Source: a virus (lineage: Duplodnaviria > Heunggongvirae > Uroviricota > Caudoviricetes). From it: a stretch of 9,589 nt of DNA. The notes below the pieces were generated by a model, which ran no database searches, was not told the origin of the DNA, and was given only the letters and a program-made list of their open reading frames with translations. Shown here one piece after another: positions 5,494 to 9,589 of this stretch (its first letter is position 1; each line of letters begins with the position of its first letter). The stretch lies in IMG/VR virus record IMGVR_UViG_2563366982_000003, one strand, 5' to 3'. The translations under genes and the position numbers were made by a program.

Positions 5494-6055
5494 ATGAGCA
5501 CTGATAAAGAAGAATTTGCGCTATATTGCGAAGCAAAAAATGACAAAGTCAGAAAACGTCTGGGAATTAAAGGTGGTTTTTACTGGACTACAGCAAAAAA
5601 ATTATCTGTTGCCATCTCCCGCTGCATTACCGCAATGGATGACAACGATTATGATGAAGACGACTTTAAAAAACCCGTTCGCGTCCATTTACCCGTTGTG
5701 AATGACCTTCCACCTGAAGGCGTGTTTGATACCGAATTCTGCAACCGATACGAAAAAGGCGGGGAAGATGGCATTACAATGGTATTTATCGCGCCCTCTC
5801 CCTCCGTGCAGGAGAAACCAGCCAGTACTGACAATACCAACGTCAACGGCGAAGACATGACGGAGATTGAGGAGAATATGCTCCTGCCGGTTTCTGGTCA
5901 GGAGCTGCCCATTCGCTGGCTTGCGCAACACAGCAGCGAAAAACCAGTAACGCACGTTGCACGGGAAGAACTTCAGGCATTACATATAGCACGGGCGGAA
6001 GAACTGCCGGCTGTTACTGCCCTGGCCATTTCTCACAAAACAAAGCTGCTCGACC
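5494..6055 (+). pseudogene. RecE-like (exodeoxyribonuclease VIII family) prophage exonuclease gene, N-terminal fragment, interrupted by an IS21-family insertion
   Basis: ORF from ATG 5494 (SD GAGG 5482-5485); the track ORF 5494..6105 reads 50 nt into the IS terminal repeat before a stop. Deleting 6056-8193 (IS plus one repeat copy) rejoins this frame exactly to the frame open from 8193 to the window end (...HKTKLLD|[24 protein letters not shown]...). Assignment to the RecE family is from recalled similarity of the N-terminal region and the synteny after dicB/ydfD. Confidence 0.6.
6049..6055. repeat. Left copy of the 7-bp direct repeat (CTCGACC) flanking the IS21-family element: putative target-site duplication
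   Basis: CTCGACC at 6049-6055 immediately before the IS terminus TGTCA; identical heptamer at 8187-8193 immediately after the other terminus. Confidence 0.55.
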
Positions 6056-6115
6056 TGTCAACGCCACGATGTTTGACCGTTATTTGCCATTTTCATGCCC
6101 GCTAAGATACTTTCG

Positions 6116-6916
6116 TTACTGATGCTGTCCGCTTTTCACCATTTCATCATCACTGATTGGCGTTGTGTTTTTGGTCAGCACTCCAGCTTTACGTTTCTCT
6201 TTTAACCGGTAACTCTCTCCTTTGATATTCAGCGTGGTTGAGTGATGTAGCAACCGATCCAGTATCGCTGTTGCCAGCACGTGATCTCCGAACATTTCTC
6301 CCCAGTCTGCGAACCCTTTGTTTGACGTCAGTATGATGCTCGCTTTTTCATATCGACGGTTCAGTAGCCGGAAGAACAGGCTGGCTTCCTCTCTGTTCAT
6401 CGGCAGATAGCCTATTTCATCCAGGATCAACACCCGGGCATAACTCAGTTGCTGCAGCTGACGCTCCAGCCGGTTTTCCTGTTTCGCTTTCATCAGTGTC
6501 GCGATCAGTCTGTCCAGTGGCATAAACAGTACCCGATGTCCCGCATCCACCGCTTTCACGCCAAGAGCTATGGCCAGATGAGTTTTTCCGACACCAGGAG
6601 GTCCCAGCAGGATCACGTTTTCGCTGCGCTCCACGAACGCCAGACCAGCCAGTTCCCGGACAACCTTACGGTCGATGCCCGGCTGGAAGGTAAAGTCGAA
6701 CTGCTCCAGCGTTTTGACCCACGGCAGACGAGCCTGCTTCAGCCTGGACTCCATACCGCGCTGATGCCTGCCGTTCCATTCCTGCTGTAGCGCCATGCAC
6801 AGGAACTCCCGGTAGTTCAGCTCTTTTTTAGCTGCCTGTTCCAGCAGGCTTTCAACGTGATAACTCAGATGCTCCATTTTCAGGCGACTCAGCAGGACTT
6901 CCAGCTCATGCATCAC
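6116..6916 (-). CDS. istB: IS21-family ATP-binding helper protein IstB (AAA+)
   Basis: 266-aa ORF with Walker [12 protein letters not shown] and Walker [10 protein letters not shown]; immediately downstream of, and overlapping, istA. Confidence 0.9.
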
Positions 6917-8085
6917 AACAGCTCCTCATAGGCACTCAGTGGTCGATGTTCCACCTGACTGACCTGCTGCCAGAGCGGGGCGTGATGCTCCGGCACTGTC
7001 TGCCAGCCAGACGATGCCGAACAGAGGCGATGTGAGGCCACCAGTTTCTCATTACTGTAGATCCGCAACTCGTCATCCAGCGATATTCGTATCGATACCG
7101 GCTGACCACACAGCGCTTCGGGAACGCTGTAACGATTACCACCAACCTCGATATAGCTGTCCCGGGACACATGGCGGATGTCGAAGTAACTGGTATCGAA
7201 GTCCGTATCCGGTAACGGCTGCAGATGTTCCTGCTCCAGCGCGAAGCGCTGTTCCGGCGTTTCTTTGAACTGGCGAAGTTCCCGTTTGTCAGCCACATCG
7301 GCTATCCATTGCTCCAGTTGTTGATTAACATGAGTGAAGCTGTCGAACCTGCGGTACCGAACGAAGAAGTTCTCCTTGAGGTATTTCACCATCCGCTCAA
7401 CCTTACCTTTTGTTCTGGCCCTGCGTGGACGGCATGCCCGTGGCAGGAAGTTATAGTGGTCGGCCAGCAACAGGAATCCGGAGTTGAACACGACTTTCCC
7501 GTTGTTATTCTTCAGCACCGCAGCCTTCTGGTTATCAACCAGCACCGTTTTCACACAACCACCGAAGTAGCGGAAGGCGCGAACCAGTGATTCGTAGGTA
7601 TGCTCAGCATCCTGTTTTGGTGCGGCGAAGACATGGAAGCGGCGGGAGAACCCCAGCGTATTAACCGCAAAGTTAACTTTGCACCGTTGCCCGGCAACCT
7701 CCACCTCAACTTCGCCCCAGTCGTGCTGGAGCTGGTATCCAGGCTGAGTTTCGAAGCGAACTGTTCTTTTTGACGGACGCATTTTACGTTTGGGCTGGAT
7801 GTAGTAACGCAGCATGGAACGTCCGCCCGTATAACCCATTGCCTTAATCTCCGCAAAGATAACCTCACTATTCCAGACATTCTCTGCCAGGCGCATGTCG
7901 ATGTAATCCATAAACGGTTTCAGCTTAACCATTTTGTGGCGGGTCTTTCTGGCTGGCGGTTCAGGGTATTTGAGGTAGCGTCTGACCGTCCGTTCAGAGC
8001 AACCAATCTGAGTCGCAATATCGACAATGTACGCGCCCTGCTGGCGCATTTGCTTTATCATGTAAAAGTCCTCTCTGCTCAGCAT
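6913..8085 (-). CDS. istA: IS21-family transposase IstA
   Basis: 390-aa ORF starting [24 protein letters not shown]... (the characteristic IstA N-terminal HTH) with a DDE-type catalytic core region; stop overlaps the istB start. Confidence 0.9.
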
Positions 8086-8186
8086 GTTGATGTCCTTTCT
8101 GGTGTGAGAACCTTAAGGAAACAACATGTTGGGTGGAGCGGACAATCCAAATGGTGAATTACCGTCTTATATCACTGGCGCTGACA

Positions 8187-8193
8187 CTCGACC
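8187..8193. repeat. Right copy of the 7-bp direct repeat (CTCGACC) flanking the IS21-family element
   Basis: See left copy; only removal of the IS plus exactly 7 bp restores the exonuclease reading frame. Confidence 0.55.
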
Positions 8194-9589
8194 CGCTGGA
8201 GATTCGCGACCTTCACAAACTGGTACGCGACACTGACAAAGTTTTCCCTAATCCCGGTAATTCAGACCTGGGACTGATAACTGCTTTTTTCGAGGCATAC
8301 CTGGACGCTGATTACACTGATCGGGGTCTGCTGACAAAAGAGTGGATGAAAGGAAATCGTGTTTCGCGTATCACCCGTACGGCTTCCGGTGCAAATGCCG
8401 GTGGCGGGAACAAAACCGATCGCAATCCGAATTTAGTACACACCTTCGATGCGCTGGATGTGGAGATTGCAGCAGCCACACTTCCGATGGATTTTAATAT
8501 TTATGAAATTCCGGGCAGCGTTTATCGTCGCGCAAAAGAAATCGTCCTGAAAAAAGAAAGTCCGTTCAGGGAATGGTCCGCAGCACTTCGCGCAACCCCT
8601 GGTATCCTGGACTATTCCCGCGCAGCTATTTTTGCACTTATCCGAAGCGCCCACCCTGAGTTTTATCACTACCCGGGGCGCCTTCAGGGGTATATCAATG
8701 CCAACCTGACAGAAACTGATCACGAGAATCCCACAGCTGAAACGCTCATGGCTGCCCGGCATACACCGGAAAAAGATATCCTGGAAGAAATTAACGGCGG
8801 ACTGGCTGCTGAGTGCAAAACAGAAGAAGAAAAAAATGATGAAGATAACCCGCAACCATCTGGCGCAATGGCAGATGAACAGGCAACGGCTGAAACAATG
8901 GCAGCGGATACAGTTGAACATCATCAGGACCCGCAGCCGCTGGATGACAAGTCACAGGTAAAAGTTACCGCTGACGAAGTAAACAAAATTATGCAGGCAG
9001 CCAATATCAGCCAGCCTGACGCCGATAAGTTGCTTGCTGCCTCTCGCGGAGAATTTGTTGCAGGGATTAGCGACCCGAATGATCCGAAATGGGTAAAGGG
9101 GATTGAAACCCGCGATTCTGTAAACCAGAACCAGCAAGAATCGGAACAGAACGACCAGAAAGCGGAACAAAACAGCCCAAATGCGTTACAAAACGAGCCA
9201 GAAACGAAACAACCTGAACCAGTAGTGCAACAGGAACCGGAAAAGATCTGCACCGCCTGCGGTCAGACCGGCGGCGGCAACTGCCCTGATTGTGGCGCGG
9301 TGATGGGCGACGCAACATACCAGGAAACATTCGATGAAGAGAATCAGGTTGAAGTTCAGGAAAATGATCCGAAGGAAATGGAAGGCGCTGAACATCCACA
9401 CAAGGAGAATGCTGGCAGCGCTCAGGATCACGCCAGCGATAGTGAAACTGGCGAGACGGCAGATCCCTTAATTACGGTGAACGGTCATCATGTTATCACA
9501 TCCACCAGCAGGACGTGTGACCATCTAATGATCGACCTTGAAACCATGGGAAAAAATCCTGATGCCCCGATCATCTCAATAGGTGCAAT
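8187..9589 (+). pseudogene. RecE-like prophage exonuclease gene, C-terminal continuation after the IS21 insertion (open to the window end): Q/E-rich low-complexity linker, CxxC-x10-CxxC zinc-ribbon motif, start of a DEDD (DnaQ-like) 3'-5' exonuclease motif
   Basis: One frame is stop-free from 8091 to 9589 and is absent from the ORF track because it has no stop in the window. Translation ...[51 protein letters not shown]...; acidic/Gln-rich segment about 9100-9240; [16 protein letters not shown] at 9249-9296; [10 protein letters not shown] (Exo I-like D-x-E) at 9522-9551. All minus-strand ORFs listed for 8433-9431 are antisense to this frame. Confidence 0.6.

Follow-up and report, generated by a model that had tools for sequence, protein, structure and literature searches.

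Within a stretch of 9,589 nt of prophage DNA (hereafter the window), an exonuclease gene is split by an IS flanked on both sides by the 7-bp repeat CTCGACC. The locus raises two questions: whether the gene was broken by a simple insertion with target duplication or by a rearrangement, and how a repeat of 7 bp arose at an element that usually leaves 4 bp. The sequence was taken from the draft assembly GCA_000351545.1 (contig KB732713.1), and the host is a lambdoid prophage of E. coli adjoining potC. The features on which the analysis turns are as follows.

5494–6055, plus strand: 5′ part of the exonuclease gene, codons 1–187 and base 1 of codon 188 (RecE-type N-terminal region, PF06630)
5494–6105, plus strand: truncated open reading frame of 203 aa, 187 native residues and 16 from the IS end
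6049–6055, no strand: left copy of the target-site duplication, CTCGACC, 7 bp, abutting the IS21 end
6056–8186, minus strand: complete IS21, 2131 bp, with full-length 100% identity to many annotated copies
6056–6066, no strand: istB-proximal terminal inverted repeat tip, TGTCAACGCCA
6116–6913, minus strand: istB, AAA+ helper ATPase, 265 aa, with its ATG at 6913 (PF01695, 302 bits)
6913–8085, minus strand: istA, DDE transposase, 390 aa (rve, Mu-transpos_C_2, and HTH in Pfam)
8176–8186, no strand: istA-proximal terminal inverted repeat tip, TGGCGCTGACA, the complement of TGTCAGCGCCA
8187–8193, no strand: right copy of the target-site duplication, CTCGACC, 7 bp, abutting the IS21 end
8194–9589, plus strand: 3′ part of the exonuclease gene, bases 2 and 3 of codon 188 through ~codon 652, 100% identical to the intact allele

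The empty site and the age of the insertion

The sequence-only reading had placed CTCGACC on both sides of the element, and we find the two copies at the very bases that border it; at two such fixed places, a 7-mer would match by chance with a probability of 4^-7, or ~6e-5. In the intact allele, the empty site reads AAAGCTGCTCGACCCGCTGGAG, with one CTCGACC. Joining position 6055 to position 8194 gives an open frame, as had been claimed, and the repaired 1958 bp match in one piece and at 100% an intact gene, annotated as 'exonuclease', that ATCC 25922 has in common with many other genomes. Intact orthologs, whose alignment had been proposed as a check, do carry the KLLDPLEIR junction.

Restoration of the frame alone is weak evidence, because it stays open after removal of the IS plus 1, 4, 7, or 10 bp alike. 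We therefore rely on the allele itself. When removals of the IS plus 0, 4, 5, or 7 bp were compared to ATCC 25922, only the 7-bp removal gave an exact substring, which singles out 7 bp. Likewise, when the two flanks are compared, the end of the left one and the start of the right one agree over n bases only for n=7, besides the trivial n=1. An earlier suggestion that part of the repeat might be coincidental fails on this point, since a duplication must abut both ends, only n=7 does so, and only the 7-bp removal regenerates the empty site.

In the intact allele, one flank runs directly into the other, no base being lost or gained beyond CTCGACC, and the allele comparison confirms a simple IS21 insertion with target duplication and without rearrangement. 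The competing account, in which there was no target duplication and recombination between two IS21 copies or some other rearrangement left a chance 7-mer, has a precedent in our survey of IS21 copies (below). There, ~10 copies lack a clean duplication and 3 of these have one flank in common with a clean site, indicating that IS21-mediated rearrangements do occur. For the window, the contiguous flanks and the low chance of a 7-mer match speak against such an origin, which the empty site effectively refutes and which we regard as extremely improbable.

Elsewhere in the window, 1 SNP in 7249 bp separates it from ATCC 25922, and the insertion, judged from this near-identity, is thus recent, in agreement with the sequence-only reading. 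The IS shows no difference from other copies, nor do the two halves of the duplication differ at any base. We did not find the insertion in any complete E. coli genome, and the viral and metagenome loci that we retrieved contained neither IS-flank junction; the exact 203-aa truncated protein is on record solely in assembly GCA_000351545.1.

Identity of the element and its usual duplication length

Hundreds of full-length E. coli copies in unrelated contexts are 100% identical to positions 6056–8186 over their entire length, and in more than 30 IS21 copies the flanking sequences diverge precisely at these two element ends. Full-length IS21 occurs in 867 E. coli records and 647 plasmid records. 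The coordinates and termini first proposed for a complete IS accordingly hold, and identical copies stop at the same bases rather than elsewhere. NCBI names copies that are 100% identical over 2131 bp 'IS21-like element IS21 family'. The IncP reference copy that we used, on plasmid pWEC911, is annotated by its authors as 'IS21 ORF1/ORF2', lies next to aph(3')-Ib (aphA), and is 99.8% identical to the window element (2 mismatches, 1 gap). The assignment to the IS21 family was thus right as to family and too loose: judged by these identities, the element is IS21 itself, which is already well known.

Its anatomy is that of IS21 (= IS8) of the IncP-1 alpha plasmids R68, R68.45, and RP4, with which it has in common the length of 2131 bp, the ATGA overlap, in which the istB start overlaps the istA stop, the 11-bp tips with TG...CA at the element ends, and the outward TTGACA at the istB end. 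The tips TGTCAACGCCA and TGTCAGCGCCA match as inverted repeats at 10 of 11 positions, and TTGACA forms the final 6 bases of the istB-end tip read outward on the minus strand. Both proteins pass their NCBIfam cutoffs, IstB with 302 bits against NF038214 (IS21_help_AAA; cutoff 200), in agreement with the annotation of identical copies, and IstA with 285 bits against NF033546 (transpos_IS21; cutoff 160). Compared to IS21 of R68, R68.45, and RP4, the element itself is no different; only the insertion footprint is, at 7 bp versus the usual 4.

The loci surveyed included those with an exact match to the 33-nt istB-side IS end, of which there were 15 in viral contigs and 108 in metagenome contigs; the same pattern had 0 matches in genome contigs. 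Clean, independent sites numbered 26, with a duplication of 4 bp at 24 (pooled from four survey rounds as 8 + 11 new + 4 new + 1), of 5 bp at one (L148), and of 7 bp at one, the window. No second 7-bp duplication was present among these 26 sites, and at the other 25 the duplication abuts the IS ends exactly. Two candidates were set aside. L127, considered as a second long duplication (GACTC[TC]AGG versus GACTCAGG), is nested or rearranged, with an IS21 end fragment ~35 nt off in its left flank, and the displaced 7-mer CTGACGG common to both flanks of L066 was judged to be chance or rearrangement.

IS21 copies identical in sequence to the window copy give 4-bp duplications elsewhere, so the 7-bp footprint leaves the identity of the element untouched. 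The sequence-only reading had offered a distinct family member as one cause of the extra length, an explanation that does not survive this observation. In place of the usual 4-bp (rarely 5-bp) footprint there are 7 bp here, a property of the event and not of the element. The 4-bp rule rests on the present survey together with secondary statements (PMC10122671, PMC11208146, PMC3299598). We found no report of a 7-bp stagger for IS21 in the accessible literature, the primary IS21 papers being out of reach.

Origin of the 7-bp repeat

How far apart the two staggered cuts fall determines the length of the direct repeat in the IS21 family, and correct target duplication reportedly depends on IstB (PMC10122671). 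IS5376, the family member on which cryo-EM of IstA and IstB was performed, has the same two-protein machinery, in which strand-transfer spacing sets repeat length and IstB shapes the target (PMC10122671, PMC11208146). It leaves 5-bp repeats (PMC10122671, PMC11208146), as did ten of ten sequenced in vitro events (PMC10122671). IS5376 is a separate element from the IS21 of the window, compared with it here by its described machinery and footprint, and its 5 bp contrast with the 7 bp here.

Based on this information, we propose that a canonical IS21 entered the prophage exonuclease gene at codon 188, with the two strand transfers 7 bp apart, a reading that we hold with good confidence. IstA, normally guided by IstB, would have joined both 3′-CA element ends to the target strands at positions separated by 7 bp rather than the usual 4 bp, and gap repair would then have produced the 7-bp direct repeat CTCGACC. 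The footprint suggests that the two strand transfers were genuinely staggered by 7 bp, probably through the normal IstA/IstB reaction running off register, as it would do only rarely.

A 4-bp stagger could lead to the same end product if the normal duplication (GACC or CTCG) was accompanied by 3 junction-spacer nucleotides (CTC or ACC) that were kept at one end and matched the target by chance. In work on R68.45, the abutted ends of tandem IS21 are reportedly ~3 bp apart. The difference of 7 - 4 = 3 fits a short spacer between abutted IS21 ends, IS21 junction spacing is described as shorter than the direct repeat (PMC3299598), and the predicted empty site is identical to the one observed. From sequence alone, a 7-bp stagger is not strictly separable from a 4-bp stagger plus 3 retained, target-matching nucleotides. 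However, the coincidence that this requires is 1 in 64 per side, or ~3% overall, and if spacers were in fact retained, non-matching ones would be expected to exceed matching ones by ~31 to 1. Of the 10 IS21 copies in the survey that lack a clean duplication, none has a 4-bp repeat offset by 1–3 nt, save the complex L127, and the exact abutment at the other clean sites likewise argues against kept nucleotides. We consider a retained spacer improbable.

The repeat could also be an artefact of draft assembly, the IS being a multi-copy repeat in GCA_000351545.1. The draft contig KB732713.1 stops within the exonuclease gene, and short-read assemblers are notoriously prone to error at IS copies. Yet both junctions link unique flank to an IS tip, so that each would be expected to have its own supporting reads, and a collapse or mis-join is unlikely to yield a perfect 7-bp duplication whose removal gives an exact known allele; the contig is, furthermore, on record for 2 samples. 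An assembly error appears still less credible than a retained spacer.

Returning to a 7-bp stagger, one may ask whether the IstA/IstB transpososome of IS21 can on rare occasions use a second strand-transfer register, of 7 bp instead of 4 (5 also occurs). We put this forward tentatively, as an idea that may well prove wrong. Such a register could arise, for example, on target capture without a properly assembled IstB clamp. If true, natural insertions like that of the window would be footprints of an alternative target geometry. In any case, IS21 target duplication is not strictly 4 bp, given one 5-bp and one 7-bp case among 26 clean natural sites. This spread bears on software that infers IS boundaries from duplication length, and it is of minor value for the structural model that assigns target geometry to IstB.

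The interrupted gene and its prophage

The locus amounts to a known element, an ordinary gene knockout, and a rare duplication length. The 5′ part of the gene (5494–6055) is 100% identical to positions 9292–9853 of L001, the start of WP_000102132.1 in ATCC 25922, which is annotated as 'exonuclease' or '3′-5′ exonuclease'. The intact gene encodes 812 aa, in which a DEDD 3′-5′ exonuclease domain is joined to a RecE-type N-terminal region, and we took the domain positions for the 3′ part from this ortholog. On that basis, positions 8194–9589 complete the RecE-type N-terminal region and run ~20 residues into the DEDD domain (DLETMG motif), with the contig terminating inside the gene at window base 9589.

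The IS21 genes are oriented opposite to the exonuclease gene, and 2.1 kb of antisense IS now lies between the catalytic domain and the start codon and promoter of the gene. As read from the sequence, the result is a plain knockout in which a 203-aa N-terminal stub remains. A consensus promoter scan at both IS21 ends gave no outward hybrid promoter toward the 3′ fragment or for antisense RNA, and by eye the flank has no acceptable -10 at 16–18 bp from the outward TTGACA at 6056–6061.

The sequence-only reading had called the gene recE-like, which is apt for the N-terminal ~615 residues and not for the catalytic domain or the neighboring genes. By BLASTP, residues 58–615 of the intact ortholog align to residues 50–592 of K-12 RecE at 58% identity, and the similarity ends at residue 615. 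Consistent with this, the ortholog scores 907 bits against the NCBIfam RecE equivalog NF007259, below the cutoff of 1269, and covers model positions 1–603 of 877 only. Pfam assigns it PF06630 (Exonuc_VIII; 116 bits, cutoff 25) at residues 57–189 and PF16473 (Rv2179c-like DEDD, DnaQ-like; 227 bits, cutoff 27) at residues 631–802, over model positions 2–177 of 177. The PD-(D/E)XK domain PF12684, present in K-12 RecE at 615–850, is absent from the ortholog in Pfam. We also note a weak match of the exonuclease to PDB 8kel, 'Exodeoxyribonuclease'.

RecE (exonuclease VIII) of the Rac prophage in K-12 and the window gene thus have in common PF06630, LLDPLEIR at the insertion point, a CxxC...CxxC motif, and a similar place in the lambdoid early-left operon. 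They differ in that RecE carries the 5′-3′ domain PF12684, whereas the ortholog of the window gene carries the 3′-5′ DEDD domain PF16473. In Rac, recT directly follows recE; in ATCC 25922, excisionase and integrase genes (xis, int) come next and there is no recT, an arrangement read from the ortholog as the window stops before the end of the gene. By domain content, the gene is RecE-like only in its N-terminal ~615 residues. For genes of this type, the name recE is inapt, as a predicted 3′-5′ DEDD nuclease replaces the RecE 5′-3′ domain and a RecT partner is lacking. The insertion is probably polar on the downstream xis and int.

Beyond annotation, the loss has little significance: in this strain, the potC-adjacent prophage lost its exonuclease gene to IS21. 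The potC-adjacent prophage of ATCC 25922 has DicF, dicB, and a DUF1482 gene upstream of the exonuclease gene, as does the window, but has no counterpart to an IS3-family element that occupies the window's left edge. This IS3-family element truncates the 3′ end of a DnaC-like replication gene, and together with the loss of the exonuclease to IS21 it makes a picture typical of prophage decay.

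IS21 in a prophage exonuclease gene

Positions 6056-8186 hold an element of 2131 bp that starts with TGTCAACGCCA and ends with TGGCGCTGACA, with TG...CA termini and tips that match as inverted repeats at 10 of 11 positions. Its two genes, istA and istB, overlap as ATGA and each score above their NCBIfam IS21 equivalog cutoffs.

Features of the element and its flanks
6049-6055 and 8187-8193: copies of CTCGACC, directly abutting the element ends
6116-6913, minus: istB, 265 aa, IstB_IS21 AAA+ domain; after istA
6913-8085, minus: istA, 390 aa; HTH, rve and Mu-transposase C-terminal domains

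A search with the 2131-bp query found 867 records with a place covering at least 80% of it, and end to end the element is 100% identical to copies carried by numerous chromosomes and plasmids of E. coli, which NCBI names "IS21-like element IS21 family". The flanks of these identical copies differ from one another, diverging exactly at the end bases proposed by the sequence-only reading. The copy on the IncP plasmid pWEC911, labelled "IS21 ORF1/ORF2" by its depositor, is 99.8% identical (2 mismatches and one gap) and lies beside aph(3')-Ib, which we take to be the classical IS21 position in R68/RP4. The named identical copies, the shared ends and the pWEC911 match show that the element is IS21 itself and no distinct relative.

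With 6055 joined to 8194, the resulting 1958 bp match, in one piece and at 100% identity, an annotated "exonuclease" gene that is intact in ATCC 25922 and in many further genomes of E. coli. The proposed splice restores the frame as claimed. Frame restoration alone is not diagnostic, since removing the IS with 1, 4, 7 or 10 bases leaves the frame open in every case. The intact allele (the ATCC 25922 gene for WP_000102132.1) reads AAAGCTGCTCGACCCGCTGGAG at the insertion point, with a single CTCGACC; it is reproduced by removing the IS plus 7 bp and not by removing the IS plus 0, 4 or 5 bp. This confirms an insertion at 6056-8186 with CTCGACC on both sides. Both the element and this type of event were known before; all that is unusual is the duplication, a rare 7 bp where the element otherwise gives 4 bp.

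At the istB-side end, the final six bases (6056-6061, minus strand) read TTGACA in the outward direction, a perfect -35 hexamer and the known source of promoters at IS21 junctions and fusions (PMC9330008). In this insertion it points antisense to the gene stub, and the flank holds no acceptable -10 at 16-18 bp.

The 7-bp target duplication

A target duplication must abut both element ends. When repeat lengths of 1-15 were tested at this element, 7 alone did so, besides the trivial single base. We compared IS21 copies, identical or nearly so (length 2130-2131 bp, 13 mismatches at most), from independent sites.

Target duplications of IS21 copies (L-numbers are loci fetched for comparison)
4 bp, 24 independent sites: ACGG, GCTG, ATAG, CCAC, CCGT, ATGT, ATGC, ATAA, CTTT, CATC, AATT, CCGG, a second ACGG, AATC, ACAT, AGTC, CGCG, TTCT, ATCA, ATAT, CAGG, TGCG, GTTA, and ACGT at the IncP site
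5 bp, 1 site: CCTGC, L148
7 bp, 1 site: CTCGACC, the window
No duplication, about 10 copies: L032, L035, L046, L066, L075, L108, L114, L118, L127, L136

The 4 bp that the sequence-only reading gave for IS21 is therefore right for the element, with the window event an outlier at 7 bp. Neither explanation then offered for the longer repeat fits: the element is no distinct family member, and since 7 alone abuts both ends, four real bases plus three coincidental ones would fit only with an insertion of extra bases.

Across the IS21 family, direct repeats are as long as the two staggered strand transfers are apart (PMC10122671, PMC11208146), IstB is reportedly needed for correct target duplications (PMC10122671), and IS5376 makes a 5-bp duplication (PMC10122671, PMC11208146). 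The simplest reading of the 7-bp repeat is a rare off-register integration, in which the two strand joins would fall 7 bp apart and gap repair would follow. The main rival, a normal 4-bp stagger with three retained junction nucleotides mimicking a 7-bp duplication, fits arithmetically (7 = 4 + 3) and would draw on a junction spacing that is described, with no figure, as shorter than the direct repeat (PMC3299598). However, the three bases would have to equal the neighbouring target bases, a coincidence of ~3%, and non-matching extras should be ~31 times commoner than matching ones, but none was found among the copies lacking a clean duplication. We consider a true 7-bp stagger behind the CTCGACC repeat quite likely.

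The only 5-bp duplication in the survey, that of L148 (an ENA metagenome scaffold; reversed locus, IS21 at 644-2774), shows that IS21 spacing is not absolutely fixed. One flank of each of L108, L114 and L118 also occurs at a clean site, which points to recombination between copies or to deletions mediated by IS21. In L127, a second IS21 end fragment lies ~35 nt from the element. An identical IS21 also interrupts a lambda-type exo (YqaJ family) gene on the E. coli 2017C-4173W12 chromosome (L004, 2627-5442). That gene belongs to a different lambdoid prophage, where it directly follows gam and bet, and the duplication has the normal 4 bp (ACGG). A second prophage recombination nuclease with an IS21 insertion may be chance.

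The interrupted gene

The intact gene (2439 bp, 812 aa) lies in a lambdoid prophage adjoining potC, with dicB and a DUF1482 gene upstream and xis and int downstream. Its description as a recE-like exonuclease gene holds only in part, and the label needs correcting. Residues 58-615 are 58% identical to residues 50-592 of K-12 RecE, including LLDPLEIR at the insertion point, and both proteins contain PF06630. The similarity stops at residue 615, after which RecE has a PD-(D/E)XK domain (PF12684), whereas the intact protein has a full-length DEDD 3'-5' exonuclease domain (PF16473, 227 bits). The protein also falls below the RecE equivalog cutoff (907 against 1269) and matches PDB 8kel weakly. Unlike Rac recE, the gene has no recT downstream in ATCC 25922.

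Of the nuclease domain, the window includes just the first ~20 residues, and window position 9589 is the end of draft contig KB732713.1. The contig probably breaks at the start of the DEDD domain because other prophages of the genome carry this domain as well; many of the listed records have the repaired gene at 2-4 places.

Consequences, recency and prophage decay

The IS lies antisense to the interrupted gene and leaves a stub of 203 aa (187 native residues, then 16 encoded by the IS). Promoter prediction gave nothing reading outward from either IS end, and judging by the operon layout, the insertion probably has a polar effect on xis and int. Within the istA-side IS21 end, an ATG at 8151 shares the frame of the gene fragment that follows (nearest upstream in-frame stop, 8088), and a gene caller reports a 479-aa product from 8151 to 9589 (+), running to the contig end. 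Its expression is doubtful, as it has no predicted promoter and no obvious ribosome-binding site by eye.

Outside the IS, positions 203-9589 differ from ATCC 25922 at one base in 7249 (position 4488). Among complete E. coli genomes, none matches the window through the IS; GCA_000351545.1 (contig KB732713.1) is the only assembly with a record of the 203-aa product, and the viral and metagenome loci carrying the IS end contain neither junction. The insertion is thus recent and, in the collections searched, confined to a single strain, which agrees with the sequence-only reading of a simple, recent insertion with target duplication.

A second IS is present in the same prophage: an IS3-family (ISEc52-like) element end occupies 1 to ~202 (also L003, a comparison locus, 1-710) and replaces the last ~50 codons of a DnaC-like replication gene.

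100-798, minus: DnaC-like ORF, 232 aa (248 aa in ATCC 25922)

With both insertions, the prophage is decaying. Its immunity region holds a RelB/PaaA2-type antitoxin (3004-3195, +) and a RelE/ParE-type toxin (3197-3475, +), assigned from Pfam marks and the annotation of ATCC 25922. As in the Qin prophage, dicB (5028-5216) has a full-length DicF small RNA upstream of it (4793-4844, +; Rfam RF00039, 76.7 bits, gathering score 48).
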